Origin: Bacteriovoracia bacterium
Lineage (GTDB): Bacteria; Bdellovibrionota; UBA1018; CAIPTA01
Direction of reading: 5' to 3'
Assembly (NCBI GenBank): GCA_050246755.1
Contig: JBFWVL010000001.1
Span: 1,568,001-1,632,000 of the forward strand
Length of the DNA: 64,000 bases
The translations under genes were made by a program, and so were the position numbers. Position 1 is the stretch's first letter, and each line of letters begins with the position of its first letter. The notes beneath the pieces are model-generated. The model saw nothing but the letters and a program-made list of their open reading frames with translations. It was not told where the DNA came from and did no database searches. Shown piece by piece: positions 31,230-46,584 of the stretch.

Positions 31230-31281
31230 ACGCCGCAGTTTGCTCTCAGATTACCTGGAAAATGATAGGATGAAGTCAAGA

Positions 31282-31309
31282 GAAGCGGTTCTCGAGTGAA
31301 CCGCTTTTT
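31282..31309 (+). terminator. Intrinsic terminator after mrcA
   Basis: gaagcggttc-tcgagt-gaaccgcttttt. Confidence 0.7.
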
Positions 31310-31393
31310 CTGCAAGATCACGGCGTTTTTTTTGCATCGTTGTGATCAGATTGCCGATACGTTTTGAAGGAGGGGCATTTGTACCCTACGAGC

Positions 31394-32278
31394 ATGGAAG
31401 CAAAAAGAAATCGTGAAGCACTGACGCTATTTTTAGCGCTCTCTTTGCTCGCTCATTTCGCTTTCGTGCTCACGATGTACTACGCGCGCTGGGAGCCATC
31501 GGCGCGTGCTCCTGAGGCCGTATACGTAGATCTCAATGCGCTTCCTCCCTCGGCACTCACTCCTGAGCAAGAAAAGGCCAAGCAAGTGGCCGAATCCGAC
31601 GTAGCGCCCAATACCGATATTCCTAAAGACGCGAAGTATCTTGGCGAGCGCAGCCAAACCGTAGAGGAAGAGACCAAGGCCAAGACTGTGGATCGTTTCC
31701 GCAAAGGCGGAGCCACTTCGATTGCCGGCGACGGCAAACAGCTCAGCTTGAAGGATCTCGCGCCTCCCACGAAGGCCGTAGCTCCTCCTACTAAGCTCGA
31801 GATGGAAGGCTATAAGCAAGAACAGCAAAAGCTGGCCCGCACCGAATCCGGCCGGGGCGGCACGATCGCTCCCGATAGCCAGGGTGCGGCCACCAATGAT
31901 TATTTGAAAGAAGTAAAAGACGGCGACAAGACCATGCTGAGCACGAAGGAGTTCGTGTACTTTGGTTACTACCGTCGCATCCGCGAGCGCCTGGAAGTAG
32001 CCTGGAGCACCCGCCTGCGCGCCGCGATGGAAGGCTATGTCTATGGCGGGCGCCAGCTAGCCAATAACCGTGATTACGTGACCGGCGTGGTGGTGGTACT
32101 CGACCGCAATGGAAAAGTTACGGGCGTGCAGCTGCTGCAGGGATCTGGAGCGCGGGATCTCGACCAAGCCGCCATCGATGCTTTTCAGTCTGCCGGGCCT
32201 TTTCCGGATCCGCCTTCGGGCTTAGTGGATGAAAATGGGGAAATTAAAATTCCCTGGAGCTTCGTGCTGCAGAGCTAG
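31394..32278 (+). CDS. TonB/TolA C-terminal domain protein
   Basis: TM segment with SLLAH; C-terminal YYRRIRERL...SG...LDQAAI.A...AGPFPDPP; start could be TTG 31364. Confidence 0.8.
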   Translation: MEAKRNREALTLFLALSLLAHFAFVLTMYYARWEPSARAPEAVYVDLNALPPSALTPEQEKAKQVAESDVAPNTDIPKDAKYLGERSQTVEEETKAKTVDRFRKGGATSIAGDGKQLSLKDLAPPTKAVAPPTKLEMEGYKQEQQKLARTESGRGGTIAPDSQGAATNDYLKEVKDGDKTMLSTKEFVYFGYYRRIRERLEVAWSTRLRAAMEGYVYGGRQLANNRDYVTGVVVVLDRNGKVTGVQLLQGSGARDLDQAAIDAFQSAGPFPDPPSGLVDENGEIKIPWSFVLQS

Positions 32279-32625
32279 TGAAATTGCTGGCTCAGCCGGG
32301 CCAAGCCTTCCTTCAATAAAACCTGATTCCAGAGCTTATCCACTTCTTGCAAGTTCATGATGATCTGCTGAAGGGCTTCGTGCGGAGCCATGCCGTGGCG
32401 TTTCGCGTAGAGGGTGGCGGCGTCCAGCAGAGCACCCACGGGAGAAGAGTGCATGAGCTCGAGCAGGCGCGTGTGCGGATCGGATTTTGCGTCCTCTTGG
32501 TTCGTTTGTGCAAGCTTTACGTTCACGAGAACGGAAGAGAGCACGCGCGGGTCGAGAGTATCTTCGGCGGATTCGGAATTATTGGATTCCATGGTCGCCA
32601 TATTTCGTTGCAGGACGTCGATCAT
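32275..32625 (-). CDS. Hypothetical protein
   Basis: 116 aa helical ORF with host-like codon usage; start uncertain. Confidence 0.6.
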   Translation of the reverse strand: MIDVLQRNMATMESNNSESAEDTLDPRVLSSVLVNVKLAQTNQEDAKSDPHTRLLELMHSSPVGALLDAATLYAKRHGMAPHEALQQIIMNLQEVDKLWNQVLLKEGLARLSQQFH

Positions 32626-32717
32626 AAGTTTTTGGTTTCGGAGTAGTTCGGAAGTTCTATTGTGGTAGCGAAATCGGAAGCGCTTGTCAAAACGCTTTGA
32701 AGAAAATTTTTTTGACG

Positions 32718-32759
32718 AAAAAAATTTCGGCTAAGTGCTTGTTCTGCAGCTTAGCCGAA
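32718..32759 (-). terminator. Terminator of the folD-gcvT-gcvH operon
   Basis: ttcggctaag...cttagccgaa stem with a T-run on the minus strand. Confidence 0.7.
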
Positions 32760-32787
32760 CATTGACGCTTGACAGTTTTTTATGACG

Positions 32788-33177
32788 CTACAGAGATTCA
32801 ACCAGCTTTTTATAGTCAGTCGCCGAGAGCAAATCGCTCGTCTCGCTCGAATTCGTTAGTTCCAGCTTGATCATCCACGCCTTTTGGTAGGGATCGGAAT
32901 TGGCGAGCCCTGGCTCATCTACCAAACTGGAATTTACGTCGAGAATTTTTCCGCTCAGCGGCGAATACAAATCGCTCACGGCTTTAATGCTCTCCACTAC
33001 GCCGAAAGTATCGCCGCGCTTCAGCGTTTTTCCCTTGGCGGGGAGCTCCACGAACACTACTTCCCCCAGTGCATCTTGCGCGTGGTGCGTGATTCCGATG
33101 GTAGCGATCTTTCCTTCCACGAGCGCCCACTCATGATCCTTGGTAAATTGGAGGGTGGGGGGAATTTTTTCCGACAT
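32788..33177 (-). CDS. gcvH: Glycine cleavage system H protein
   Basis: HEW; GIT..AQ..LG; lipoyl motif VESIKAVSD. Confidence 0.96.
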   Translation of the reverse strand: MSEKIPPTLQFTKDHEWALVEGKIATIGITHHAQDALGEVVFVELPAKGKTLKRGDTFGVVESIKAVSDLYSPLSGKILDVNSSLVDEPGLANSDPYQKAWMIKLELTNSSETSDLLSATDYKKLVESL

Positions 33178-33199
33178 ATTATTCTCCTTTTGAAATCTC

Positions 33200-34315
33200 T
33201 TATTCTTTTCTCTTATAGAAAGGCGTTGCCACCACTTCCGCAGGAAAGAACCGGTCGCGAATTTGTACGCTCAGCTTCGTTCCTGGTTTTTGCCAGCCTT
33301 GCTTTACGTACGCGATCGCAATTGGCACCCCTAAAGAGGGGGCCAATGTGCCACTGGTTATCTTACCTAATTTTTCGGCGCCATCGGCACTAAAGACCTC
33401 GTAACCTTGCCGCGGAATCCCGCGGTCCTGGGTCTTAATGCCCACCAGGGCGCGGGTAAGGCCGGAGGCTTTTATTTTAAGCAGGGCTTCTTTGCCCAGA
33501 AAGTCGTTGGGCTTATCGAGCTTCACTACCCAGCCCAGTCCGGCTTCGAGCGGATTGGTTTCGGCGTCGATTTCGTGGCCATATAGAGGAAATTTCATTT
33601 CGGTGCGGAGCGTATCCCGCGCGCCGAGGCCGGCGTGCAGGAGCCCAAGCGGTTTTCCTGCCTCCCAGATTTTTTGCCAGATTGTGCTGGCGGCGGCGGC
33701 GGGCGCGTAGATTTCAAAGCCGTCTTCGCCGGTATAGCCAGTGCGGCTCATGATTACCTTGATCCCGAAAAAATCTATCTCGGCGAAATGGTAATATTCG
33801 ATGGCCTGGAGATTGAAATCAGTCAGTTGCGAGAGGATTTTTTCCGAGAGTGGCCCCTGGAGCGCGATCTGGCAGAATTCGTCGGAAACGTGTTTGAGGG
33901 AAAGCCCGGGGAACTTTTTCCCCTGACGCGCGATCCACTCCCAGTCCTTATCGATATTTCCCGCGTTGATGCAGAGGAGATATTTATTGGCGGCGCGCCG
34001 GTACACGAGGAGATCGTCCACCACGCCGCCGTTCTCGTAGCACATAACCGTATACTGGGCTTGGCCGTTCACGAGGCGCGAAACATTATTCGTAACCAGA
34101 TAGTTAAGGAATTCTTCGGCGCGTTCACCTTCCACCAGCACTTCACCCATATGGCTTACGTCAAAGAGGCCGGCCTTCGTGCGCACGGCTTGATGCTCCT
34201 GAGAGAGGCCGGTGTACTGCACGGGCATATGCCAGCCGCCGAAATCCACCATGCGTGCGCCGGCGTCGATATGCGCTTGATTGAGAGGAGTTTTTTTCAT
34301 GGACGATTTATTCAT
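33200..34315 (-). CDS. gcvT: Glycine cleavage system aminomethyltransferase T
   Basis: FGGWHMPVQY, FDVSHMGE, SRTGYTGEDGFE and GLGARDTLR motifs. Confidence 0.96.
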   Translation of the reverse strand: MNKSSMKKTPLNQAHIDAGARMVDFGGWHMPVQYTGLSQEHQAVRTKAGLFDVSHMGEVLVEGERAEEFLNYLVTNNVSRLVNGQAQYTVMCYENGGVVDDLLVYRRAANKYLLCINAGNIDKDWEWIARQGKKFPGLSLKHVSDEFCQIALQGPLSEKILSQLTDFNLQAIEYYHFAEIDFFGIKVIMSRTGYTGEDGFEIYAPAAAASTIWQKIWEAGKPLGLLHAGLGARDTLRTEMKFPLYGHEIDAETNPLEAGLGWVVKLDKPNDFLGKEALLKIKASGLTRALVGIKTQDRGIPRQGYEVFSADGAEKLGKITSGTLAPSLGVPIAIAYVKQGWQKPGTKLSVQIRDRFFPAEVVATPFYKRKE

Positions 34316-34358
34316 ACCTTGGGGCCTTCGCGCGGAGCAAGTCGGAAGGTGGTTATCG

Positions 34359-35213
34359 CTAAGCGTTACGCGCGTTCGCGGCGCGCACGGTATTGCGGAT
34401 CAGCATCGCGATCGTCATCGGTCCCACGCCGTTGGGTACGGGAGTGAGGAAAGAAGCGATTCCCATCACGGACCTCGCGTCTACGTCGCCCACTACACGC
34501 TTCCCGTCGCGATTGATGCCCACGTCAATGATCACGGCGCCTGGCTTCACGAATTCTTTGGCCACGAAGCGGGCTTTTCCCACGGCCACCACCAGAATGT
34601 CGGCGCCGGCGCAGAGCTCAGCGAGATTTTTCGTTTTGGAATGGGCGATGGTGACGGTGGCGTCGGCACCGAGCAGCATCAATGCCATGGGTTTTCCCAC
34701 GATCGAGGAGCGGCCAAGAACCACCGCGTGTTTACCGGAGGTGGGGATTTTCGCTTCCCGGAGAATTTCCATCACGCCGGCGGGGGTGCAGGGCGGGAGG
34801 CCGCTGGCTAGGGTCTGTTTTGCGTCTATGAGGAGGGCTCCGGCATTCTGGGGATGAAAGCCGTCTACGTCTTTTGCGGGATCGATGAGGGCCTGGATTT
34901 TTCGCTCGTCCCAACCGCTGGGGAGGGGGGACTGCACGAGAATTCCATCGATATCTTTGCGGGCGTTCAGCTGGAGGATAGTTTCTTCGAGCTTCGCGAA
35001 GCCTTCGCTGGGCTGGAGGTGGAAGTCTTCGGCGTGAAGGCCATATTTGCGGCAGGTTTCGGTCTTCTTTTTCACGTAGATGCTGGAGGCGGGATCATCG
35101 CCCACGAGGACCACGGCGAGGCCGGGCTTGCGCTGGAGTTTCGCGGCGCCGGCGCGCGCTTCGCTAAGGGTTTTTTCGGCCAGCTCGGGGGTTTTGAAAA
35201 GGAGGGTTTCCAC
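34359..35213 (-). CDS. folD: Methylenetetrahydrofolate dehydrogenase/cyclohydrolase
   Basis: YVKKK, KDVDGFHP, PCTPAG, GRSSIVGKP and TPVPNGVGPMT motifs. Confidence 0.96.
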   Translation of the reverse strand: METLLFKTPELAEKTLSEARAGAAKLQRKPGLAVVLVGDDPASSIYVKKKTETCRKYGLHAEDFHLQPSEGFAKLEETILQLNARKDIDGILVQSPLPSGWDERKIQALIDPAKDVDGFHPQNAGALLIDAKQTLASGLPPCTPAGVMEILREAKIPTSGKHAVVLGRSSIVGKPMALMLLGADATVTIAHSKTKNLAELCAGADILVVAVGKARFVAKEFVKPGAVIIDVGINRDGKRVVGDVDARSVMGIASFLTPVPNGVGPMTIAMLIRNTVRAANARNA

Positions 35214-35228
35214 CTGGAAGAGAATAGC

Positions 35229-36128
35229 TTAGCTCTTCCAGTGTTCGGACATCTTTTTTTCGCCAAATTCCTCGAGGGCATGGAGCTGATTGTGCGCGGG
35301 GCAGCGGAGCCGAAGGTTTTCTACGGTATTGAGGCCGCCCTTGGCGAAAGGGATGACGTGGTCGAGCTGGAGGGAGAATTGGCTGCCGCAGCTAGGATAG
35401 GTGCAAAGGGCTTGGTCGCGCAGCCAAACGGCGTGGCGGACTTGGGCGGGGATGTGGCGGGAGTGTTTGGGGTGGGGATTTACTTGCGACGTGATAGAAG
35501 CATTGCGTCGTTTCGCAACTCGCAAATTTCGTTCAGCTTTTTTTATGGGGTCGTACTTTTGTAACGCAACATCGGCCAATTTTTCGACGAGTTGTTCGAT
35601 GGACTTGGCAGCGAAGATTTCTTTCAAACGTTCTAACTTTTGAAAAAGTTCCCTAGTGGCAGCAAATCGAATCTCAGTATGAGAATTGGAAATCGGACGG
35701 ACCAGCTCCCGAAAATTAGTGGGATCAAGTGACCGTAAGATTTTTTGAATGTCGCGAGCCGATTTGTTTTCGATTTGCATTAAAATCTCGATTCGTTTTT
35801 CGCGCGGTAATTTCTTTTTGTGGAAAAATACTTGAGCCTGTCCGGCCGCGCTTAGGGTTAAATCGCCCTTCTGAAGCTTCTCCTCCATCTCCGGAAACTC
35901 CCGCATTAGTCGGGCCGCACAAATTCTCCGCTGTGCCTGCGATTCCGAAAACCGCAGCACCCGCACGCAATACTCAAATAGCGAAGGGTAACTCTCCTTC
36001 GCGTAGAGCCGTCGCAAGGCAATTTCATTCAGGTGATGCAGCAGTGCTGTCACCAGCCGGCGCTCGGCCCGCGCCAGCTGCCAGGTACTCTCAAGCAATT
36101 GATCGTCGGAAAATTTTCGTAGGTCCAT
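35229..36128 (-). CDS. HNH endonuclease with N-terminal helical (DUF222-like) region
   Basis: C-terminal RD...C..PSC......DHVIP.AKGG.N...NL...C..HN; N-terminal Y.SLFEYC...L..SE..A.RR. Confidence 0.85.
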   Translation of the reverse strand: MDLRKFSDDQLLESTWQLARAERRLVTALLHHLNEIALRRLYAKESYPSLFEYCVRVLRFSESQAQRRICAARLMREFPEMEEKLQKGDLTLSAAGQAQVFFHKKKLPREKRIEILMQIENKSARDIQKILRSLDPTNFRELVRPISNSHTEIRFAATRELFQKLERLKEIFAAKSIEQLVEKLADVALQKYDPIKKAERNLRVAKRRNASITSQVNPHPKHSRHIPAQVRHAVWLRDQALCTYPSCGSQFSLQLDHVIPFAKGGLNTVENLRLRCPAHNQLHALEEFGEKKMSEHWKS

Positions 36129-36214
36129 GCTTGTGAGCGAGCAATTCATGCGCCCGTTCGCTCATCGGCAACTCCTTGGAATCAAATCGCGACTCCACAC
36201 GGCGTCCGGAATCC

Positions 36215-36230
36215 CGTCAACAAACTGACG
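36215..36230 (+). promoter_or_regulatory. Palindromic upstream activator site for a sigma54 enhancer-binding protein
   Basis: CGTCA-ACAAAC-TGACG dyad about 85-100 nt upstream of the flgF sigma54 promoter. Confidence 0.55.
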
Positions 36231-36312
36231 TTTTCTGTCCACCCCGTCAAATCCGCCGCCCACCCAAACCAAGAGCCGAGAAAATTCCTAAACGATTTCG
36301 CGCGCCACGAAA

Positions 36313-36328
36313 TGGTACGAGCCTTGCT
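36313..36328 (+). promoter_or_regulatory. sigma54 (-24/-12) promoter of the flgF operon
   Basis: TGGTAC-GAGCC-TTGCT matches TGGCAC-N5-TTGC with correct GG-N10-GC spacing. Confidence 0.8.
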
Positions 36329-36352
36329 CTTCCGTGGTTGGGAGAGAATCAG

Positions 36353-37192
36353 ATGAGCAAGGGTTTCTGGCCAGCCATATCCGGAGCAGTCGCGCAGAGC
36401 GAGCGCATGGATACTATCGCCAACAATCTAGCCAACTCCGATACCACCGCCTTTAAACGGGATCAGGTGGCCTTCCAGCAAGTTCTCAGCAGCGCCACAG
36501 CCGCCGCCCAGAAAGAAGAGATTCCCCACAAGCCGTATACCGAAAAAGATTTTCATCGCCTCGACGGCAGAGACTCCACGTTCGTGGCCGTAGAGGGTTC
36601 TTTCACCGATTTCTCCCAAGGCCGCGTGAAGGTAACCGGCTCGCCCCTCGATCTCGCCGTAGAGGGGAAAGGTTTTCTCGAAGTGCTCGCGCCACAAGGC
36701 TTGCGTTATACCAGGCAAGGAAGCCTGAAGATGAATGCCGAAGGCGGCCTCGTGACCACCGAGGGCTTTCCCGTGCTGAATCCGGGCGGGGCCCCCGAGC
36801 CGGGAAAAATTCCTACCCGCGAAGAGCTGATGGCGCGGGCGATCCGCCTCGACAGCGCCAAAGATCCCAAAATTACGATCACCAGCGACGGAAAGATCTA
36901 TCAGGGCAAACAGGAAGTGGCCCAGCTTTCCGTGGTGGAGTTCGTGGATGCAAAGTTGCTGACGAAAGACGGCAGCTCTCTGTTCAATAATAACGAGCTC
37001 TCGGCCAATATTTCGCAGGACGATAAGTCCACGACGATTCGCCAGGGGGTACTAGAGACTTCGAACGTAAACGCGATAGCAGAGATGAGCGAGCTTCTGA
37101 AAGCCACGAGGCTCTTCGAGGCCAATGAAAAAATAGTGAAAACGTACGGCGACCTCGAAGGCCGTGCGGTGAACGATTTAGGCAAGCTCTAA
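36353..37192 (+). CDS. flgF: Flagellar basal-body rod protein FlgF
   Basis: IANNLAN..T..FK; TG.PLDLA; YTR.G; LETSNVN. Confidence 0.88.
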   Translation: MSKGFWPAISGAVAQSERMDTIANNLANSDTTAFKRDQVAFQQVLSSATAAAQKEEIPHKPYTEKDFHRLDGRDSTFVAVEGSFTDFSQGRVKVTGSPLDLAVEGKGFLEVLAPQGLRYTRQGSLKMNAEGGLVTTEGFPVLNPGGAPEPGKIPTREELMARAIRLDSAKDPKITITSDGKIYQGKQEVAQLSVVEFVDAKLLTKDGSSLFNNNELSANISQDDKSTTIRQGVLETSNVNAIAEMSELLKATRLFEANEKIVKTYGDLEGRAVNDLGKL

Positions 37193-37221
37193 CTCTGAAC
37201 TGATTCCATGGAGGGAACAGT

Positions 37222-38007
37222 ATGCTGAGAGCAATACATACGGCCGCAACGGGCATGGAAGCCATGCAGAATAACTTGGACAACGTGGCCAACAACTTGG
37301 CCAACGTAAATACCACCGGCTACAAAAAGAGCACGGCGGAGTTCCAGGACCTCTACTACCAAAATATCCGCGATCCCGGCACCCAGGTTACCGCCGACAC
37401 GAATACGCCCACCGGCGTGCAGATCGGAACGGGCGTGAAAACCGTGAGCGTGCACAAGGATTTTTCCCAAGGCTCGGCCAAACAAACCGGAAATAGCTGG
37501 GATCTTCTCGTAGACGGAGAAGGTTTCTTTTCGGTGCAAAAAGAAAACGGCGAGTTGATGTATACCCGCGACGGCAGTTTCAAGATCGACGGGACCGGAC
37601 GCGTAATGACCAGCGGGGGCTACCTGCTTCAGCCGGCGATTACGGTGCCCGCCAATGCCGCCACCGTTACGATTTCCCGCTCTGGGATCGTTACCGCCAT
37701 CGACAGCGAGGGCAAGCAATCGCAGATCGGGCAGCTCGAGCTCGTGAATTTCGTGAACGCCCAGGGCCTCAGGGCTGCGGGCGGAAATCTTTACCAAGTA
37801 AGCGAAAGCTCCGGCGCGCCGGTGCAGGGCACGCCCAGCAATAATGGGCTCGGTGGCATCGAGCAAGGAAAGCTCGAGAGCGCCAACGTGAACGTGGTGA
37901 GCGAGATGGTGAATATGATCCAGGCGCAGCGGGCCTACGAGATGAACTCGAAGGTGATGCAGGCGGCCGACCAAATGCTGCAGGTTTCGAACAATGTCAT
38001 TAAGTAG
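37222..38007 (+). CDS. flgG: Flagellar distal rod protein FlgG
   Basis: ANNLANVNTTGYKK; FQDLYYQ; EMVNMIQAQRAYEMNSK. Confidence 0.96.
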   Translation: MLRAIHTAATGMEAMQNNLDNVANNLANVNTTGYKKSTAEFQDLYYQNIRDPGTQVTADTNTPTGVQIGTGVKTVSVHKDFSQGSAKQTGNSWDLLVDGEGFFSVQKENGELMYTRDGSFKIDGTGRVMTSGGYLLQPAITVPANAATVTISRSGIVTAIDSEGKQSQIGQLELVNFVNAQGLRAAGGNLYQVSESSGAPVQGTPSNNGLGGIEQGKLESANVNVVSEMVNMIQAQRAYEMNSKVMQAADQMLQVSNNVIK

Positions 38008-38998
38008 CCGTAATTTCCTATTCCTGGCTTTCGTGTTTCTGATGCCGCTCGAGGTATGGGCGGCGATTCCCGTGCCCACGAAGGATATCGAAGTGCGCAT
38101 TGAATCCGCGGTGCCCGTCAGCAGCCAGCGGATCGTGCTCGGCGATGTGGCCACCATCTACGCCAAGAGCATGCGCGATTTCCGTGAGCTATCCGAGCTC
38201 GTGATCTCGCAAATCCCCGAGGATAAATCGGAGTTGCGGTTGCCGCAAAACTATCTCGAGCGTCGGATCAAGGAAGTTATTCCCGCGGGCACCGAGTTCG
38301 CGCTCCACGCCCCGAATGAAATTATTTTCCGTCTGCAGCGCATTGGGATCACGCCCGTGGATTTCGCGGCCGAAGTGGAGCGTCAGGCGAAGGTGGGCGG
38401 AAAGTTCCCCCAGGGAATCGAGACCGAGATCGAGGTTATTTCCGGCGCCGATCAATTGAAGTTATATAAGCCCGATGCCGTGCGCATCGAGCCGGCTGCC
38501 GAAATGGCGCAGTGGCGCGGCGAGCTCGCGTTCAAGGTGGTGGCTAAAGACAATTCCGCGCAGATCTCGTGGGTAAAAATTAAGTTGCGCTGGTTTGCCA
38601 ACGTATGGGTGGCCACCAAGACCATGGGCATCAACCAGTCCCTCGATGCCGCCGCTTTCACGCAGGAGCGCCGTGAGCTCACGGGCCTCCGCGAAGAAGC
38701 CTTCGTCGCCTCCGGACTCGAGGAGCTGAGCACTAAATTAAGTTCCGCGCGCGCGCGCCGGAGCATAGGCACGAATGCGGTGCTCACTTCCGCCATGGTG
38801 GAGCGCAAGCCCGACGCCGGTCCGGGGCAGATCTTGAAAGTAGTATTCGTTTCGGAAAGCGGGATCCGCGTTTCCACCGATGGCGCCCTCATCGGCGCCA
38901 GCTCCATCGGGAGCGAAGCGCGTGCCAAGCTGAGGTCTTCTAGAAAAATTGTCACCGGCAAGCTCGTTTCGGGCGGCGTGATGGAGGTTAGCCTATGA
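37994..38998 (+). CDS. flgA: Flagellar P-ring chaperone FlgA
   Basis: Position between flgG and flgH; signal peptide; SAF-like C-terminus. Confidence 0.75.
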   Translation: MSLSSRNFLFLAFVFLMPLEVWAAIPVPTKDIEVRIESAVPVSSQRIVLGDVATIYAKSMRDFRELSELVISQIPEDKSELRLPQNYLERRIKEVIPAGTEFALHAPNEIIFRLQRIGITPVDFAAEVERQAKVGGKFPQGIETEIEVISGADQLKLYKPDAVRIEPAAEMAQWRGELAFKVVAKDNSAQISWVKIKLRWFANVWVATKTMGINQSLDAAAFTQERRELTGLREEAFVASGLEELSTKLSSARARRSIGTNAVLTSAMVERKPDAGPGQILKVVFVSESGIRVSTDGALIGASSIGSEARAKLRSSRKIVTGKLVSGGVMEVSL

Positions 38999-39849
38999 AG
39001 TTTGCTCTTTCGATGATGTTGGGTTTGTGGGCCCTGTATTCTTTTTCCGGCTGCGCGATGATCGATTCGCTGCGCGATGAAAGCGCCACCATCGATGCCG
39101 AAGCCGGTACCGATCATGATCGCGAAGGAAATACTTCCGACATAGAGCGCCCTGTGCAAAGGCAGCGCGGGCTGAACGGCCTGAGCGCCAATAATGTTCC
39201 CAGCTACGAGCCCTCCGTGGCGCGCGGCTATGGGCGCCGGCTCTCGAGCCTCGCCAACGACGACGCTCCCGCCGCCATCAGTTCCGCGCAGCAGGAATTC
39301 CGCCGTGCGACCCGCGAGGATTTCATCGATAAGCAGGCCCACGAAAACAGCCTTTGGGACGGACAGGGCCAAGGCAACTACCTCTTTTCCAATAACCGTA
39401 AGCGCGAAGTGGGCGATCTCATGACCGGCGAAGTGGAAAAGGATCTCAAGCGCGAGATCCAATACCAGCTCTGGATGACGCTCCCGCCGGAACAGCGCAA
39501 GACCAAGCGCGCTCCGGCTAGCGTGGCGGGTGCGGCCACCGATCCGGCCGCGAAGGCCGCCGCGGCCGCCGAAGCCGGAAAATCCGCCGAGGAAAAGGGC
39601 AAGGACGCTGCCGCCGAAGCCGCGAAAACCAATATGGCCGATACCAAGGACGACGACGTGGTTCGCATGGAAGTGGTGGAGAGCCTCGGCAACGGGCTCG
39701 TGCGCGTGGTGGGCCAGAAGCGCGTGATCTACCGCGGAGTGTCCCGCGTGGTGGAAGTGATGGCGCTCGTGAACAACAAAGACGTCGACGACAATAACCG
39801 CGTGAAGAGTTCTAACTTCCTCGACATGAAGACCCAGGTGATCCAATGA
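38995..39849 (+). CDS. flgH: Flagellar L-ring protein FlgH (divergent)
   Basis: Lipobox FSGC; SLW, VGD, V.E.LGNG...V.G.K and D.D.NN.V.S motifs. Confidence 0.8.
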   Translation: MKFALSMMLGLWALYSFSGCAMIDSLRDESATIDAEAGTDHDREGNTSDIERPVQRQRGLNGLSANNVPSYEPSVARGYGRRLSSLANDDAPAAISSAQQEFRRATREDFIDKQAHENSLWDGQGQGNYLFSNNRKREVGDLMTGEVEKDLKREIQYQLWMTLPPEQRKTKRAPASVAGAATDPAAKAAAAAEAGKSAEEKGKDAAAEAAKTNMADTKDDDVVRMEVVESLGNGLVRVVGQKRVIYRGVSRVVEVMALVNNKDVDDNNRVKSSNFLDMKTQVIQ

Positions 39850-40853
39850 AAAATTTAATTGCCCTCGCTCTCGCCCTCGCCTTTCTTCCGCAGCCGGCCG
39901 ACGCCGCGCGCCTGAAGGATATCGTGCGCATCAAGGGCGTGCGCGAAAACCTTCTCATCGGGTACGGACTCGTGGTGGGCCTCAAGGGCACCGGGGATTC
40001 CAGCGCCGAAGTAACGGGCAAAGCCTTGCTGCGCATGTTCAGTAAGATGGGAATGAATATCGAAACGGAAGTGAAATCCAAGAACGTGGCTTCCGTGGTG
40101 GTGACCGCAAAGATTCCCGCGTTCTCGAGAGCTGGGCAGAAGCTCGACGTTACCGTATCCAGCGTGGGCGATGCGGGCAGCCTTGAAGGCGGCACGCTCC
40201 TGATCTCGCCGCTGCGAGCGGGCGACCAGCAGGTATACGCCGTGGCGCAGGGACCGGTGAGCCTGGGTTCGGCGACGGACGGCAGCGGAAAGTTCGCTAC
40301 GAACGGACGCGTGCCCATGGGCGCGATCGTGGAGAAGGAATTGGCGGGCGATTTCGCCAATAAGAAGGCGCTCCGTCTGAATTTAGACGAACCCGACTTT
40401 ACAACCGTGGCCCGCGTCAGCCGCGTGATCAATACGGAGCTCGGCGGCAAATACGCAACCTCCGTGGACCAGAACACCGTGGACCTGATCGTTCCATTTT
40501 CTTACGACGGGAACGCCGTCGAATTAATGGCGGTGCTGGAAAATTTGACGGTGAATACCGACACGCGCGCACGCGTGGTGATTAACGAGCGTACCGGAAC
40601 CGTGGTAACCGGCGGTAAAGTACGCATCAAAAACGTGGCTCTGTCGCATGGCGACTTATCCATTCAAGTGGCCGGCGCCAAGAATGCGAAGAAGGGGGAG
40701 GGGAAGAAAGTGATGGAAATTCCAAGCACTACGAACGTCTCCGAGCTCGCCACGATGCTTAATGAAATGGGGGTGGGGCCCAAAGACCTCACCGCAATTT
40801 TTCAGTCGCTCAAGGCGGCCGGTGCTCTCGAGGGTGATTTAGAAATACTCTGA
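39846..40853 (+). CDS. flgI: Flagellar P-ring protein FlgI
   Basis: RLKDI...GVREN.L.GYGLVVGL.GTGD; SLEGGTLL; LKAAGAL. Confidence 0.96.
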   Translation: MKNLIALALALAFLPQPADAARLKDIVRIKGVRENLLIGYGLVVGLKGTGDSSAEVTGKALLRMFSKMGMNIETEVKSKNVASVVVTAKIPAFSRAGQKLDVTVSSVGDAGSLEGGTLLISPLRAGDQQVYAVAQGPVSLGSATDGSGKFATNGRVPMGAIVEKELAGDFANKKALRLNLDEPDFTTVARVSRVINTELGGKYATSVDQNTVDLIVPFSYDGNAVELMAVLENLTVNTDTRARVVINERTGTVVTGGKVRIKNVALSHGDLSIQVAGAKNAKKGEGKKVMEIPSTTNVSELATMLNEMGVGPKDLTAIFQSLKAAGALEGDLEIL

Positions 40854-40868
40854 GGCAATTTGCCGGCT

Positions 40869-40884
40869 TGGCAAGGAGCGTGCA
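40869..40884 (+). promoter_or_regulatory. sigma54 promoter upstream of the candidate sRNA
   Basis: TGGCAA-GGAGC-GTGCA with GG-N10-GC spacing; predicted +1 at about 40895-40896, where the closing stem begins. Confidence 0.65.
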
Positions 40885-40895
40885 TTAGGTTCAGC

Positions 40896-41070
40896 AGGTG
40901 CACGATTCTAGGATGGAATCATGTGGAACTCACGCAGGAAACAGGAAAAAGCTTCGTTTGCCATGGATGGCGTTCAAGAATTTCTAGTTTTGAGTTTCCG
41001 ATCGCAAGGATGCGAACTGCACCTCGGAGCAGGGAGACCCCGGAAGAATGGGTCTCCCCGCTTCTTTATT
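40896..41070 (+). ncRNA. Candidate CsrA/RsmA-sequestering small RNA (CsrB/RsmZ-like architecture)
   Basis: Ten GGA trinucleotides in about 170 nt; GGA-loop hairpins at 40904-40920, 40960-40971 and 41002-41015; 5'/3' closing stem AGGTGCA/TGCACCT; terminator hairpin at 41032-41058 with a T-rich tail. Confidence 0.7.
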
Positions 41071-41086
41071 TTAGAAGGGATTGCGC

Positions 41087-41446
41087 ATGAAAATCGATAG
41101 CCCGCGCCTCCCGGCTCCACCTCAACCCGTTGATCCCGAATCTCTCAGTAAAGATCATCCGCTCTGGCAAGCCGCGCAGGGAATGGAAGCGAACTTTATG
41201 AAAGAGATGGTACGCAATATGCGTAAGACCGTGCAGGAAAGCCCGGAGATGGAAAATAGCCGGGGGTATCAGATTTTTCGCGGCATGCTCGACGACCAGT
41301 ACGCCGAGACCGCGGTGAAAACTCAGGGCATCGGATTGGCCGAGCTTATCGTGCGCCAGGTATTGGAGATGCAAGAGAATGCCCGGGCTGCCAGCGCTCC
41401 GGTTCCGGTGAGAGAAGTAAATAAAAGTGATGTTCTCAAGAAATAA
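41087..41446 (+). CDS. flgJ: Single-domain rod-binding protein FlgJ
   Basis: L..AA..MEA.F...M...MRKTV; FRGMLDDQYA; GIGLAELIV.Q; no muramidase domain. Confidence 0.88.
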   Translation: MKIDSPRLPAPPQPVDPESLSKDHPLWQAAQGMEANFMKEMVRNMRKTVQESPEMENSRGYQIFRGMLDDQYAETAVKTQGIGLAELIVRQVLEMQENARAASAPVPVREVNKSDVLKK

Positions 41447-41537
41447 AGATTCAAGGCATTTTGGCAGGACGTGTTAAGATTGAGTTATGAGGTAAACTCT
41501 CGGTAAGCGAGGGTACAAGGTTCAGGAAGGACAACTC

Positions 41538-41864
41538 ATGAAGGTAAATAATCATAAAGATTCCGTAGAGCTCTCGCAGCTCTCTCGTTCCAAAAAAGGC
41601 GAAAAAGCCGGAGCAGCGAAGGCCCAAGAAGGCGGCGCCGATTCTCTCGCGAGCGCAATCGCTCCTGGATCCACGGCTAACGTGGAAATTTCCAGCGAAG
41701 CGAAAACGCTTTCCGCCGCGAACCAAGCCGCCCGCGCCGGCGGCGTAGACCAGGAAAAAATTGATCGCATCAAAGCAGCGATCAACGGTGGAACCTACAA
41801 GCCCGACTTCGGGAAAGTTGCAGATAAAATGATTAACGAGACCGTGCTCCAGGATCTCTCGTAA
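41538..41864 (+). CDS. flgM: Anti-sigma28 factor FlgM
   Basis: VEIS...; EKIDRIK.AI..GTY..D...VADKM. Confidence 0.9.
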   Translation: MKVNNHKDSVELSQLSRSKKGEKAGAAKAQEGGADSLASAIAPGSTANVEISSEAKTLSAANQAARAGGVDQEKIDRIKAAINGGTYKPDFGKVADKMINETVLQDLS

Positions 41865-41910
41865 CCGAGAGTTTTTCCGGGGCTCTCGTCATGGATGATG
41901 AGGGACGACC

Positions 41911-42432
41911 ATGGATGGCCTAGCTCCAGATCTAGAGGAACTTACTAAGAACCTCAAGCACCAGCTCACGCTGTACCGCCAGCTCGTGGATTTGCTGCGC
42001 AGCGAGCGCGAGCATATCGTGGCCGTTCGCCTAAAAGAGATTCGCGAATCCACTTATTCCAAAGAAGCCCTGCTCGATGAAGTGCACCGCGAAGAGTTTC
42101 GCCGCATGCGCTGGGTGAAGCAGGCGTCCACCTTTCTCGGCCTTTCCGAAAAAGAAATCACCATGGAGATGGTGGCTTCGAAAATCGGCGGCCCCGAGCA
42201 GTACGAGTCGATGTTCAGCCTGAAGCAAGCCCTTCTGCACATGGTGAAGAAGGCGCGCGACATGAATCACGACAATCAGCAGCTCGTGACCACCGCTCTC
42301 AAGGACGCGCAGCTCCTGAAGCGCAATATTTTGGGCCTCTCTTCGGACCAGCCGCAAGTCTATGGTCCCAAGGGCAGCATCGGATCGGCCGTGCGCGATC
42401 AAAGCGCCCGTTTCGTGAATAAGGAACTCTAG
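41911..42432 (+). CDS. flgN: Flagellar chaperone FlgN
   Basis: Helical protein between flgM and flgK; N..N..L and Y...G pattern. Confidence 0.82.
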   Translation: MDGLAPDLEELTKNLKHQLTLYRQLVDLLRSEREHIVAVRLKEIRESTYSKEALLDEVHREEFRRMRWVKQASTFLGLSEKEITMEMVASKIGGPEQYESMFSLKQALLHMVKKARDMNHDNQQLVTTALKDAQLLKRNILGLSSDQPQVYGPKGSIGSAVRDQSARFVNKEL

Positions 42433-43857
42433 ATGGGCAGTACCGTAAACATGTTCAATATTGGGAAGAGTGGCCTCATGGTCACCAAGCAGGCGTTGAC
42501 CACGACCTCCCATAATATCGCGAACGTGAATACGGAAGGCTACTCGCGACAAAACGTGGAACAAGGCTCTGCCCCTCCCACCACGAATGGGCGCCTTACG
42601 ATCGGCCAAGGAGCCTTCGCTAAAAAAGTTACCCGCGTCAGCGACGAGTACCTCGAGAAACGCATCCAGAGCGAACATAAGAACTTTGCCAATATGGAGG
42701 AAAAAGACGTTTACCTCCAGCAAACCGAGCAGATCTTCAATGAGTCGAATAACGATGGCTTGAATCGCCTCGCCACCCGCTTCTTCAACGAGTTCCGCCA
42801 GCTTTCCACGGATCCTTCCAATCCTGCGATCCGCGCGGCTGTGCGTGAGTCCAGTAGCCAGCTCTCTTCCGACATCAACCGCATGGACCGGGAGCTAAAA
42901 GAAGTTTCCCACAATATCGACGCTCGCCTTGAAGGCTACGTGCGCGAAGTGAACTCGCTGGCCCGCGAAGTGCGCGACCTCAATCTCTTGATCCAGAAGT
43001 CCGAGCTCGGCGGCGGCGAAGCTCCCGATCTTCACGACAAGCAAGATCTCGCGCTGAAAAAACTCGGCGCCCTCGCAGATATTTCTACCAGCAAAGACAA
43101 TAATGGGCGCGTGACGGTTACGCTCGCCGGCCAAGTGGCGATCGTGGCGGGCGAGATGGTGAAGGAGCTCGAAACGAGCCGCACGCCCGCGGATCCCGCC
43201 AGCGGCAAGCCCGAGGGCGCCATGGACATTTTCATCAGCGATCCGGTGCCCGCGAAAATGACCGGCTTTCTCAAGACCGGCCGCCTGGGAGGATTGCTCG
43301 AGGTGCGCGATAAGGATATCGGCGCCGCCCAGGACCGCATCAATACCATCGCCTTTACCATGGCGAACGAAGTGAACAATTTGCACCGTCAGGGCTTCGG
43401 CCTCGATGGCGCCGGTAACCGAAACTTCTTTGCGCAGCCGCTCAATAAAGAATCCGCGGCCGCCACGCTCAAAATCAGTGCCGATATCGCCGACAATCTC
43501 GACGCCATCGCCGCCGCCAAGGATCCTGCCGGGCAGAGCGACAACCGCATGGCAGTGGCCCTCTCCGGGCTGGGCGATCTCAAGGGCGTGATGGGCGATC
43601 AGAATTCGTCGATTCTCGATTCCTATAACTCGATGGTGTCGGAACTCGCGGTAAAGACCGGAGCCACGAAGCGTGGCCTCGTCTTCCAGAAAGACGTCCT
43701 CTCCCAGCTCGAGAACGTGCGTGAGTCTCTGGTGGGAGTGAACCTCGATGAGGAAACTGCGAACCTAATTAGGTTCCAGCACGCGTATGCGGCGAGCGCG
43801 AAGGTGATGTCGGTGGCCGACGAAACGCTGCAAAGCGTTTTGAATATGTTTAAGTAA
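42433..43857 (+). CDS. flgK: Hook-associated protein FlgK
   Basis: SHNIANVNTEGYSRQ; GVNLDEE.ANL..FQHAY.ASAK. Confidence 0.95.
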   Translation: MGSTVNMFNIGKSGLMVTKQALTTTSHNIANVNTEGYSRQNVEQGSAPPTTNGRLTIGQGAFAKKVTRVSDEYLEKRIQSEHKNFANMEEKDVYLQQTEQIFNESNNDGLNRLATRFFNEFRQLSTDPSNPAIRAAVRESSSQLSSDINRMDRELKEVSHNIDARLEGYVREVNSLAREVRDLNLLIQKSELGGGEAPDLHDKQDLALKKLGALADISTSKDNNGRVTVTLAGQVAIVAGEMVKELETSRTPADPASGKPEGAMDIFISDPVPAKMTGFLKTGRLGGLLEVRDKDIGAAQDRINTIAFTMANEVNNLHRQGFGLDGAGNRNFFAQPLNKESAAATLKISADIADNLDAIAAAKDPAGQSDNRMAVALSGLGDLKGVMGDQNSSILDSYNSMVSELAVKTGATKRGLVFQKDVLSQLENVRESLVGVNLDEETANLIRFQHAYAASAKVMSVADETLQSVLNMFK

Positions 43858-43873
43858 ACGGGGGCTCTGAGCG

Positions 43874-44857
43874 ATGAGAGTGGGCGAAAACACAACTTTG
43901 AACACCGTGCGGGATAGCCTGAACCGCTCGCGCTTGCGCATGAATGATTTGCAAAAAGAGAACTCCACGCTCAAGCGCGTGAATGCTCCTCACGACGATC
44001 CCGTGGGCAACGCGAAATTAATGTCGATCCGCAATGAGCAGCTCGATAATACCGAGTTCGAGCGCAATGCCAACCTCGCCAAAACTTTTCTTAATTATAC
44101 CGACTCCTCCCTTGAGGAAGTGACCAACCTGCTCGTGCGCGCCAAAGAGCTCGCGCTGGGGCAGGCCAGCTCCGCGGCGAATGGCGCTGAATCGCGCGCG
44201 ATGGTGGCCGAAGAGATCAAAAATATTCAGGCGGAAATCAGCTCGATCGCTAACCGCCGCCTCGGCGACCGCTTTATCTTTTCGGGCTATCGCACCGCCA
44301 CCACCCCTTTCGACGAAAGCGGCAACTACGCCGGCGACGACGGAAAGATCATGGTGGAAGTGCAAAAGGATGTATTCGTGGGAATGAACGTGCCCGGCCG
44401 CGAGATTTTCCTCGGCGCCGCTAAGGCTCCCGCGAGCCGTGATCCGGCCAGCATGGAGCTCCAGGCTGAACAGACCACCCAGGGGCCAGAAATGGCTACT
44501 AAGCAGAAAGCCGAGCGCCCGAACGAAGATATTTTTCGTACTTTAGACGCCCTCCGCGTGGGCCTGATGACGAACGATGTGGACGGCATCCGTGCCACTC
44601 TCGAGCCTCTTGATCAGGTACGTGACCGCGTGATCACCACCCGGGCCCAAGTGGGCGCCCGGATGTCCGGAATCGATTCTGCCCTCTCAAATATGGGCAA
44701 ACGTGGCGTATTCAACGCGGAGCTTCAGTCGAATATCGAAGACGCCGACATCATCCAAGTAGTGTCTGATATGGCACGAGAAGAGAGCGTTTTGCGGGCC
44801 AGCCTGCAGGCCTCTAATAAGCTCATCCAGCCCACGCTCTTAGACTTTTTGCGCTAG
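43874..44857 (+). CDS. flgL: Hook-associated protein FlgL
   Basis: DDP; RFIFSGY.T.T.PF; ends TLLDFLR. Confidence 0.92.
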   Translation: MRVGENTTLNTVRDSLNRSRLRMNDLQKENSTLKRVNAPHDDPVGNAKLMSIRNEQLDNTEFERNANLAKTFLNYTDSSLEEVTNLLVRAKELALGQASSAANGAESRAMVAEEIKNIQAEISSIANRRLGDRFIFSGYRTATTPFDESGNYAGDDGKIMVEVQKDVFVGMNVPGREIFLGAAKAPASRDPASMELQAEQTTQGPEMATKQKAERPNEDIFRTLDALRVGLMTNDVDGIRATLEPLDQVRDRVITTRAQVGARMSGIDSALSNMGKRGVFNAELQSNIEDADIIQVVSDMAREESVLRASLQASNKLIQPTLLDFLR

Positions 44858-44943
44858 GGCCATTGCTACAACCTCTGAAATCGGTTATTCACACCCTCAC
44901 TTAGGGACAGAGTCCCTCATAGGGATATGAGAGGTTTTGCAGT

Positions 44944-45204
44944 ATGCTAGTTTTGACCAGGAAACTCGGCGAATCTATCGCCATCGACGATCACATCAAA
45001 ATCATGGTCGTTCAGATCAAGGGTAAGCAAGTCCGTTTGGGCATTCAGGCTCCCAAAGAGACTAAAATTCACCGCCAAGAAGTCTACGAAGCTATTCAGA
45101 CGTCTAATAAAGAAGCTGCGGCTTCCTCCCCCAAATCCGTGAGCCAAGTAGCCGAAATGATGAAACGTGGCGGCTCCTCCGAAAACGACGGAAAAAATTC
45201 CTAA
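44944..45204 (+). CDS. csrA: Carbon storage regulator CsrA (FliW-binding type)
   Basis: MLVLTRK.GESI.I; VRLGI.AP; HR44.EVY; Asn55 and a C-terminal extension. Confidence 0.96.
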   Translation: MLVLTRKLGESIAIDDHIKIMVVQIKGKQVRLGIQAPKETKIHRQEVYEAIQTSNKEAAASSPKSVSQVAEMMKRGGSSENDGKNS

Positions 45205-45275
45205 GTTATTGTGCAATCTGCCACGGCAGGCTTACAATAAATAAGGTGACCCGCTGTGGAGCGTTGGGGGAATAA

Positions 45276-45827
45276 ATGAAAGTAAATACAAGCCGTTTTG
45301 GTGCCGTTGAAGTTGCTGATTCCGACATTATGGAATTTGCCGATGGCTTGCTCGGATTCGAGCAGTTGCAACGATTCTTCATCGTAGATCCCGCGGATGA
45401 AACTCTCATCCTATGGCTGCAGTCGATGGATTCGCCCGATGTGGCGTTCCCGATTCTCGAGCCGAGGCTCTTCAAGGCTGACTACAAAGTGCGGCTCTCG
45501 GCGAATGAGCTGCGCTCCCTGAAAATCGATTCCACCAAGAATAAAGACACCCTGGTGTACTGCATTCTCACCATTCCTGCCGATGTGATCTCGATGAGCG
45601 CGAACCTTAAGGCGCCGATCGTGATCAATACCGGAAGCCGCATGGCCCGCCAAGTGGTTCTGCAGGAGAATGAATACTCGGTGAAATTCCCGATCTACAA
45701 AGAGCTCCTTGCGGTGATGATGTCGGCTGGCGGCTCGGTGGCGAAAAAAGAGAAAACGCAAGACCTGCCGGTTTCGGCGCTCTCGCTGCGGGATACTTCT
45801 TCCCAAGTGGAAGTTTCGGCTCTTTAA
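45276..45827 (+). CDS. fliW: Flagellar assembly factor FliW
   Basis: T.RFG; F..GLLGFE; WLQS; ANLKAPIVIN; QVVL. Confidence 0.95.
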   Translation: MKVNTSRFGAVEVADSDIMEFADGLLGFEQLQRFFIVDPADETLILWLQSMDSPDVAFPILEPRLFKADYKVRLSANELRSLKIDSTKNKDTLVYCILTIPADVISMSANLKAPIVINTGSRMARQVVLQENEYSVKFPIYKELLAVMMSAGGSVAKKEKTQDLPVSALSLRDTSSQVEVSAL

Positions 45828-45849: not shown

Positions 45850-45877
45850 AGGGGATGGCGAAAGCCGTCCCTTTTTT
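45850..45877 (+). terminator. Intrinsic terminator after fliW
   Basis: gggatggc-gaaa-gccgtccc followed by tttttt. Confidence 0.8.
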
Positions 45878-45879
45878 AT

Positions 45880-46584
45880 TTAGAGCGAGCTCTCGGTGGA
45901 TTGCCGGGTCATGTCCAAATACATCTTCACTTGGCGATTGGCGGGGTCTTTCATCTGCGCCTCCTGCAATTCGATCTGCGCATCCACCACATTGCCGAGC
46001 GCATGATAGAGCAGGGCGAGATGCACGCGCGCGTTCACGTGGTCGGGATTTTCGCGCACGAGATTTTCCAATTCTTGCTGAGCGAGCTTCATTTGCCCGC
46101 GCTGTCCGTGAGTTTTCGCCAACAGAATGCGGGCCTCGATATTCTCGGGGTCTACGCGGCCGGCTTTGAGGAATTCGTTGGCGGCTTCATCGAAGCGCTG
46201 GAGCTTACGGTAGAGGTTGCCGAGCTCGAGGTGTTTGGCGGAGATTTCTTTGCCGAGCATGATGCTCGGGGTGGGGCCGCCTGATTTGCGGTGCGCGCTT
46301 TTTTCCGCCTGCGCGAAAACCTGTGCGCCTTCTTGGTAGTGGCCGGTATCATTGTAGATCACGGAGAGGCTGATCGCGGCATCGGTGAAGTGGGGGTCGA
46401 GCTGGAGCGCGCGTTTGAAGCGGTCCACGGCTTCGCCAAGGCGATTTTCCCGGTGAAAAATCGTGCCGAGCACGTACTGGGTTTCAGCGGTGGCCGCGCC
46501 GGCAGAATCAATATCCAGCAGGAGATCCTTGGCGGCTTCCGAATGGCCTTGCGCAAGGAGGCGTTTGGCGTCGTCTAAATTCAT
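45880..46584 (-). CDS. Tetratricopeptide repeat protein
   Basis: Multiple TPR consensus repeats; translationally coupled to bamD. Confidence 0.85.
   Translation of the reverse strand: MNLDDAKRLLAQGHSEAAKDLLLDIDSAGAATAETQYVLGTIFHRENRLGEAVDRFKRALQLDPHFTDAAISLSVIYNDTGHYQEGAQVFAQAEKSAHRKSGGPTPSIMLGKEISAKHLELGNLYRKLQRFDEAANEFLKAGRVDPENIEARILLAKTHGQRGQMKLAQQELENLVRENPDHVNARVHLALLYHALGNVVDAQIELQEAQMKDPANRQVKMYLDMTRQSTESSL

Follow-up and report, generated by a model that had tools for sequence, protein, structure and literature searches.

Between flgI and flgJ, two flagellar genes of a Bacteriovoracia bacterium (phylum Bdellovibrionota), lies a gap of 233 nucleotides (nt) with a conserved, structured and single-copy element that we predict to be a non-coding RNA of about 177-179 nt. 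The gap lies in a stretch of 64,000 nt of the forward strand (GenBank assembly GCA_050246755.1, contig JBFWVL010000001.1, positions 1,568,001 to 1,632,000), which is termed the window in what follows and supplies the numbering for this locus: flgI ends at 40853, the predicted RNA occupies 40894-41072 on the forward strand, and the ATG of flgJ stands at 41087. An earlier examination of the same letters, here called the original prediction, had proposed that this gap encodes a sigma54-driven RNA sponge for CsrA, forming a dual checkpoint with the protein FliW. The reading that we favor, with confidence only slightly better than even, is that the RNA is a CsrA decoy that is also the leader of the operon into which it is set.

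According to this reading, a non-coding RNA of ~177 nt would start at a conserved sigma54-type promoter and end at a conserved intrinsic terminator, and its closing stem would gather three hairpins with A(N)GGAN loops and the CAGGAAACAGGA tract, a sixth conserved GGA being placed in the terminator loop. The terminated RNA would sequester about three CsrA dimers as a decoy in the manner of RsmY and RsmZ, and the amount of free CsrA would fall while the promoter is on. Transcripts stopping at 41072 would furnish the free decoy, and those reading through would be the sole route to the genes from flgJ to csrA and fliW. Matching GGA hairpins are found in the leaders of flgM, flgN and csrA. One CsrA would thus face two antagonists, the RNA and FliW, with the genes of both adjacent to csrA.

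Anatomy and conservation of the flgI-flgJ element

Every feature that the original prediction had listed is present in the gap. The core domain (40896-41024) is closed by stem P1, which pairs AGGTGCA (40896-40902) with TGCACCT (41018-41024). It includes hairpin 1 (GAUUC-UAGGAUG-GAAUC, 40904-40920, with its GGA at 40911-40913); the inner stem P2 (40925-40932 with 40991-40999); the CAGGAAACAGGAAA tract (40935-40948), which bears two GGA at 40937-39 and 40944-46; hairpin 2 (40960-40971, GGA at 40965-67), which we draw as GCC-AUGGAU-GGC and which had earlier been drawn as GCCA-TGGA-TGGC; and hairpin 3, (U)CGC-AAGGAU-GCG(A) (41002-41015, GGA at 41008-10). The intrinsic terminator (41026-41072) consists of a hairpin of 14 base pairs (bp; 41026-41064), with a loop GGA at 41042-44, and then TTTATTTT; all these parts lie on the forward strand. 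The minimum free energy (MFE) fold of the whole RNA agrees with this drawn structure (-64.5 kcal/mol, z -2.84) and only 2 of 200 shuffled sequences fold as well, the terminator by itself reaching -25.9 kcal/mol (z -3.25). The closing stem, the inner stem, the three GGA-loop hairpins and the terminator of the original prediction were reproduced both by the MFE fold and by RNAalifold on 20 sequences. Its tandem single-stranded tract survived in part: the CAGGAAACAGGA tract is present, but its single-stranded state is ambiguous, with both folds pairing part of it with invariant partners.

The RNA holds ten GGA in 180 nt, as had been noted against an expectation of roughly three; the genome mean is 3.2 (standard deviation 1.8) per 180-nt segment, and only 0.19% of such segments in the genome reach ten. 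The presence of several GGA in loops and linkers, typical of RNAs of the Csr/Rsm type, takes the form here of three A(N)GGAN loops, two linker sites and one terminator loop. A genome-wide ranking by GGA-loop hairpins per 150 nt was uninformative, coding regions dominating it.

Among the relatives, the DNA of the flgI-flgJ gap is 66-80% identical in all eight other genomes of the family to which the window's genome belongs (f1). In the same relatives the neighboring proteins FlgJ and FlgI are 35-50% and 78-88% identical, respectively; that is, the gap is more conserved than the neighboring gene flgJ. A pattern scan of metagenomes added 12 further copies, 11 of them full-length, and 20 distinct sequences make up the alignment (A1). 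In A1 none of the 20 sequences departs from GGA at five sites, namely hairpins 1, 2 and 3, the second GGA of the CAGGAAACAGGAAA tract and the terminator loop, and 19 of 20 keep it at the sixth, the first GGA of the tract, while the stems vary; the original prediction had offered to stand or fall by such conservation of the loops in relatives.

It had also called for a covariation analysis of the gaps of relatives, which supports the fold. Thirty-nine pairs were scored in the 20 sequences, with 94.5% of the cells paired and compensatory change at 20 pairs; none of 500 shuffles reached the observed value on any of five pairing measures, and slid controls were 27-45% paired. P1 (6 pairs, 95% of cells paired) and P2 (6 pairs, 92.5%) each show compensatory changes at 3 pairs, hairpin 1 shows them at two stem pairs, and the stem of hairpin 2 is 98.8% paired. 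In the terminator stem 11 of the 14 pairs have undergone compensatory change, and the hairpin with its T-run recurs in 22 of 22 sequences.

When a covariance model (R1) was searched against the window's genome it returned exactly one copy (E 1.5e-51). Among 127 genomes of the class, strong matches were obtained in 8/8 genomes of f1 and in 2/2 of f2, a sister family of the same order (E 1e-18 and 4e-16), which accounts for all ten other genomes of the order; there is one copy per genome, always in the flgI-flgJ gap. A near-identical strain (DNA run X2, 95-99% identical) differs at 11 positions over window 40600-41500: the final 254 nt of flgI account for 2 of them, flgJ and the sequence directly behind it for 9, and the 233-nt gap for none. 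Searches with Rfam gave no match at the gathering score in the window, and at E up to 10 they yielded in 40000-42000 only two chance matches to unrelated families. This lack of a Csr/Rsm hit is the outcome that had been said beforehand to favor novelty.

Promoter motif, coding status and gene context

The -24/-12 promoter motif that had been proposed ahead of the closing stem is found at 40869-40884 on the forward strand (TGGCAAGGAGCGTGCA), with a predicted +1 at about 40894-40896. In the window, where 0.70 matches would be expected, the sigma54-type pattern TGGCA-N7-TGCW has 4, a number reached in 0 of 100 shuffles. In families f1 and f2 the form TGGCAAG-N4/5-(T/C)GCA is present in all 22 sequences with invariant spacing, and the bases upstream of it are unconserved among the same 22. 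The GG and GC elements, ten bases apart as in the consensus TGGCAC-N5-TTGCW, are conserved. The genome possesses rpoN as well as 23 strong enhancer-binding proteins, and both of these, together with the motif and its invariance, point to use of the promoter by sigma54; the binding site of an activator would fall within the end of flgI. Two metagenome copies (L023:620-860 and L028:4340-4584) have a GC hairpin of ~30 nt inserted behind the sigma54 motif and ahead of the closing stem, which is consistent with the motif being a promoter and the sequence after it being transcribed.

A few other candidates were considered in this region. The -24/-12 motif is a poor candidate for a further GGA hairpin, its stem having only 3 bp and the spacer GGA occurring in just 14 of the 22 sequences. 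Sigma28 and sigma70 promoters, sought inside the RNA and before flgM, were represented by only poor, non-conserved matches by eye, and a consensus scan for promoters and terminators showed none nearby; the same scan also missed the terminator because of its 9-base loop. The box TGTAAG-N6-CTTACA, which we take to be the upstream activating sequence of GacA/UvrY, occurs with up to 3 mismatches 10 times in the window against 10.9 expected, and not at all in 30589-45218.

A 76-codon open reading frame (ORF) covers the element at 40860-41090. We regard it as spurious, because stops occur in all three frames across the element in 11 of 14 analyzable relatives, an open frame being kept in the other 3, and because the insertions and deletions within the order (A1) are not multiples of three; these features argue that the element is non-coding in this order. 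With the promoter motif and the terminator in 22/22 sequences and the non-coding state in 11/14, it is a candidate for a discrete transcript.

The gene row around the element was delineated chiefly by Pfam matches and runs on the forward strand. Upstream of flgI (39846-40853) it contains flgA and flgH, and the first gene past the terminator is flgJ (41087-41446), which encodes the rod-binding domain only (PF10135, E 9.5e-15). It is followed by flgM, flgN, flgK and flgL (41538-44857), csrA (44944-45204), the sole copy of the genome, and fliW (45276-45827; PF02623, E 3.1e-37); 3' of fliW the sequence has a terminator-like hairpin with a T-run at ~45852-45885. The CsrA protein, of 86 residues, belongs to the FliW type: it has Asn55 and extends into a C-terminal tail, as the original prediction had described, and fliW stands in the same row. 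In the class at large csrA was found in 119/127 genomes, including 75/75 of those of high quality, and wherever it shares one contig with flgI it lies ~4 kb downstream of it. As flgJ begins 15 nt past the T-run in the window, and 8-34 nt past it in 14/14 relatives analyzed, the space before it cannot accommodate a separate promoter; hence the element must also be the leader of flgJ-flgM-flgN-flgK-flgL-csrA-fliW.

The link to CsrA comes from the form of the conserved sites, for the invariant A(N)GGAN loops on short stems match the CsrA site as it is described in the available portions of PMC7652899 and PMC7366521. Hairpins with a similar loop recur downstream. The ribosome site of flgM has the hairpin UGUUC-AGGAAG-GACA (41515-41540), and that of flgN (41883-41920) has two, one of them equal to hairpin 2 in loop and stem, with CCAUGGAUGG at the flgN start; these leader hairpins are kept in 12 of 13 relatives. 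In the csrA leader (44905-44943) the hairpin CUCAUA-GGGA-UAUGAG stands just before the ribosome-binding site, and the motifs suggest that CsrA controls more than flagellin here, its own gene included. The genome encodes five flagellin paralogues (G000:C1:1439933-1441389, C1:1741524-1743032 and C3:283497-283907), of which at least two have GGA hairpins in their 5' leaders by eye. In the window AAGGGA precedes the ATG of flgJ, and by eye the Shine-Dalgarno region of this gene has a GGA in five of seven f1 relatives and lacks it in two, a count to be read with the reservation that such sequences often hold GGA anyway.

Counterparts in sister families and in Bdellovibrio

The motifs of the element extend well beyond the order. 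In the sister families flgJ starts 200-340 nt past the end of flgI, and the interval carries the same motifs: the pattern CAGGRAAYRR-N10-24-GCYA-N0-1-GGAWGG was detected in 81 of 102 sampled genomes of the class as against 5 of 299 from other classes, and the same pattern reversed, used as a control, in 4 of 401 genomes. It occurs in 51 of the 61 flgI-downstream stretches that were scanned. Of the hits outside the class, three of the four inspected proved to be unrelated sequence, the fifth (genome G199) being left out.

In six of these families (f3, f4, f7, f10, f13 and f14; loci L052-L058, L066-L084 and L111) a small ORF of 70-114 codons spans the flgI-flgJ interval, and in 23 of 25 loci it overlaps both neighbors, beginning 4 nt ahead of the flgI stop and running 4 nt beyond the flgJ start. 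Neither a significant Pfam match nor an NCBIfam match was obtained for it. The N-terminus bears the motif WKDF(V/I)LDD..GP.L, and the remaining conserved 'protein' motifs are the RNA motifs in translation: MEDA corresponds to the AUGGAAGAU hairpin, IQET to CCAGGAAAC, ARMVG to the GCUAGGAUGG hairpin and GMEA to the hairpin GGC-AUGGAA-GCC. In the last of these the paired substitutions of the stem alter the amino acids too (for example UCGAC/GUCGA, CAGC/GCUG and UUGGC/GCCAA), and over 48 sequences 86.8% of the cells are paired with 46 double-change cells, which 0 of 500 shuffles reach; this hairpin is the class-wide, strongly covarying counterpart of hairpin 3. Since the GMEA stem covaries through amino-acid changes, and since family f8 reads the first motif in another frame, the constraint is on the nucleotides. 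The small ORF looks like a doubly constrained leader ORF. Family f5 has a shorter frame with MIQET (NQET in some members), whose stop overlaps or abuts the flgJ start in most, and the flgJ ribosome site is covered by its 3' hairpin, whose loop contains or adjoins the AUG.

Some individual loci deserve mention here. In the window the AUG of the terminator loop opens an 8-codon mini-frame (41046-41075); this AUG is present in all 20 aligned sequences, at the place where f4 and f5 have the flgJ start, and may be a relic of a former flgJ start. A hairpin identical to hairpin 1 precedes a gene whose first residues, by reading, are FliQ-like (L044, G064:C443:4056-4182), and a near-identical one with the loop UAGGAUU precedes another ORF (L043, G122:C39:19121-19226); both are probably further CsrA-controlled leaders. 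In a genome of family f22 (L144, G134:C1) the flgI-flgJ gap measures ~90 nt, has a TACAAT box and just two GGA, one of which is on the ribosome site, and is a classical two-site CsrA leader.

A GGA-hairpin RNA with the core GCAGGAAAC(A) also follows flgI in genomes from other classes of the phylum. In one of them, G243, FlgI ends at 499,329, with csrA at 504.2 kb and fliW at 504.7 kb, ~5 kb downstream. The attack-phase transcriptome of B. bacteriovorus HD100 (PMC3627812, Karunker et al. 2013, in the portion available) includes a small RNA (sRNA) named APsRNA1, at 499,375-499,581 on the plus strand, 207 nt long, which reached 50,451 reads per kilobase per million (RPKM), was 16-fold enriched in attack phase and has mapped start sites. 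The same source discarded candidates connected to a downstream gene and kept APsRNA1 as unconnected; in that portion it is without an assigned function and no homologues are reported outside B. bacteriovorus. If the numbering of G243 is assumed to be that of the publication, these coordinates (L152, G243:C1:499375-499581) coincide exactly with a GGA-hairpin element, an interval that starts 6 nt past a TACAAT box, ends in a T-run and has 7 GGA, several of them in loops.

This element occupies the same place as ours, directly after flgI and before the row from flgJ to csrA-fliW, and its parts follow the same order: a GGA hairpin, CGCAGGAAACAGGA, which is common to both, more GGA hairpins, the last being GC-AGGAU-GC, and a final T-run. 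It differs in having a TACAAT-type -10 box where the window has the sigma54 motif, and in that its closing stem with the T-run seems to act as the terminator, whereas the window RNA has a separate terminator hairpin. R1 scores the G243 element at E 0.84 and the genome of a further family, f33, at 7.1e-6, and among the other classes it did not reach the elements of genus g125. Apart from PMC3627812, APsRNA1 is named in no paper found in our literature search. Under the assumed identity of the two numberings, the counterpart of the window RNA appears to be a discrete and abundant RNA.

Decoy, leader or both

Among known systems, the RNA is close in design to CsrB, CsrC, RsmX, RsmY and RsmZ, the CsrA/RsmA-sequestering sRNAs of Gammaproteobacteria, with which it shares its predicted non-coding nature, several GGA in loops and linkers, an intrinsic terminator and a genome with CsrA. 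It differs from them in having a sigma54-type promoter instead of one activated by GacA/UvrY, in standing within a flagellar gene row directly before a promoterless flgJ, in having six conserved sites, fewer than CsrB, and in the FliW type of its CsrA. The resemblance to RsmY, RsmZ and CsrB is one of mechanism, whereas in descent the RNA falls outside the Rfam families CsrB, CsrC, RsmX, RsmY or RsmZ, none of whose models matches it and whose GacA-type box is not found nearby.

A second comparison is with the CsrA-FliW systems of hag in Bacillus subtilis and flaA in Campylobacter jejuni, as given in the available part of PMC7652899: these too combine Asn55 and a C-terminal tail, csrA beside fliW and an RNA of the flagellar regulon with CsrA sites, and the flagellin leaders of the window's genome likewise bear GGA hairpins. 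The flaA mRNA of C. jejuni titrates CsrA, according to the accessible text of PMC4894983. However, hag and flaA are translated mRNAs with about two sites, whereas the window RNA is predicted to be non-coding, is bounded by a terminator and has many sites. CJnc230/FlmR of C. jejuni resembles it as an sRNA produced from within the flagellar cluster under RpoN, but is described as acting on mRNAs and not as a protein decoy, and the abstracts of PMC11187230 and PMC8687705 mention no GGA-hairpin design. For Geobacter, the parts available of PMC11934962 and PMC5568370 contain untested predictions elsewhere in the genome and a flgJMNKL-csrA-fliW operon established by reverse transcription PCR.

Of the dual checkpoint of RNA and FliW that the original prediction had envisaged, what stands is a real, conserved and structured RNA, a FliW-type CsrA and a fliW gene in the same row; a leader of flgJ, however, is at least equally anchored. 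Its premise that the two modes of CsrA antagonism are usually viewed as alternatives agrees with the review PMC7366521, which in the passage available calls the antagonism by sRNA and by FliW 'mutually exclusive' and knows of no sRNA antagonist in FliW-type systems. A CsrA-binding sRNA of Bdellovibrionota was not described in the literature searched.

Several considerations weigh against the decoy-plus-leader reading. CsrA binding is predicted from the motifs alone, and sigma54 use, termination and titration are predictions of the same kind. The conserved CsrA-type sites number six, which is few beside CsrB, and two transcriptome sets (metatranscriptome contigs) provided one 114-nt contig less than 90% alike, from which no conclusion was drawn. 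DNA sequencing runs from landfill and wastewater habitats contain this genome, and among the runs listed for the stretch there is no RNA run. The strict sigma54 pattern has 19 intergenic sites in the genome, and no other flagellar operon was recognized behind them, the downstream ORFs being judged by eye only. With no flagellar gene recognized there, timing with the middle class of flagellar genes is unsupported, and the 'sigma54-timed' component of the original prediction is weak. The element of G243, and with it APsRNA1, is probably the nearest relative of the window RNA, a homology that is argued from position, shared motifs and collinear order and for which R1 falls short; the link to APsRNA1 is in turn conditional on the G243 numbering being the published one, and APsRNA1 is a candidate counterpart in that sense. 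The homologous hairpins of the sister families, in an ORF coupled to flgJ or before a ribosome-site hairpin, are a matter of cis regulation. Finally, a leader or attenuator role is inseparable from a sponge by computation, as a by-product of attenuation would look alike.

The alternative that survives best is accordingly a purely cis-acting leader or attenuator, which we judge possible but rather doubtful. Expression of the genes from flgJ to fliW would then depend on free CsrA, which when bound to the nascent RNA would alter termination at 41026-41072 or the translation of flgJ, and the short RNA would arise incidentally and do nothing in trans. A CsrA-controlled attenuator leader for flgJ had been the fallback of the original prediction, and with flgJ 8-34 nt past the T-run and cis hairpins in the sister families it proves no less well anchored than a pure sponge; the csrA gene downstream also invites feedback. 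The class-wide counterparts are in cis, through the 4-nt overlaps of the small ORF with both genes and through the f5 hairpin over the flgJ ribosome site, and the f1 terminator loop retains both an AUG at the same place and a conserved GGA. Yet no antiterminator pairing between the core and the terminator is conserved: when the sequences are truncated ahead of the 3' arm, the core folds back on itself in all 20, and the one alternative pairing, GGGGC-AGGGAA-GCCCC within the 5' arm, is confined to close relatives. A promoter and a strong terminator of its own, kept in 22/22 sequences, are what an autonomous RNA gene needs. CsrA-repressed leaders usually hold two sites, a number that the six high-quality sites of this element exceed. 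The G243 counterpart, moreover, corresponds to a published RNA scored as unconnected to its downstream gene in the available text of PMC3627812. A separate candidate, in which hairpin 3 and the 3' strand of P1 would form the hairpin GAUGCG/CGCAUC, was set aside, being absent by eye from the window and from L007.

That the structured RNA has another job, be it as a platform for another protein, a processing or stability element or a base-pairing sRNA, with its GGA unrelated to CsrA, seems to us improbable. Such a role would suit an RNA without an Rfam family, whose binding of CsrA is a prediction and whose published Bdellovibrio counterpart is left without a function in the part available of PMC3627812. 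It would not explain that the invariant part is exactly the GGA in A(N)GGAN loops on short stems that covary, that loops of this type recur at the ribosome sites of flgM, flgN and csrA, or that csrA-fliW always follow in the same gene row. The notion of a small protein-coding gene, the 76-codon ORF with its stop overlapping the flgJ ATG as ATGA being the counterpart of the ORF that the sister families retain across the same motifs, can be dismissed as highly implausible, given the interrupted frames and the insertions and deletions noted above, the two conserved motif halves that fall in different frames here as compared with family f4, and a terminator with T-run that would lie within the gene.

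Returning to the RNA as decoy and leader in one, we tentatively sketch how two-antagonist control of CsrA might have arisen in Bdellovibrionota, a scenario that we put forward as a possibility of lesser probability: a leader ORF, as in the sister families, would have given way to a shortened leader, as in f5, and this to an autonomous sponge in the present order and, separately, in the APsRNA1 group. Should this be true, the RNA would be the first CsrA sponge outside Gammaproteobacteria and would show an sRNA gene arising from a coding leader, the same protein-binding hairpins being part of a reading frame in one lineage and of non-coding sequence in another. If the element is only a leader, it would still constitute a new CsrA-controlled gate before the late flagellar genes and csrA itself. 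A conserved multi-GGA RNA beside csrA and fliW would break the dichotomy between sRNA and FliW as antagonists of CsrA, and an abundant sRNA of a model predator, so far an orphan, would gain a function that could be tested there by genetics.

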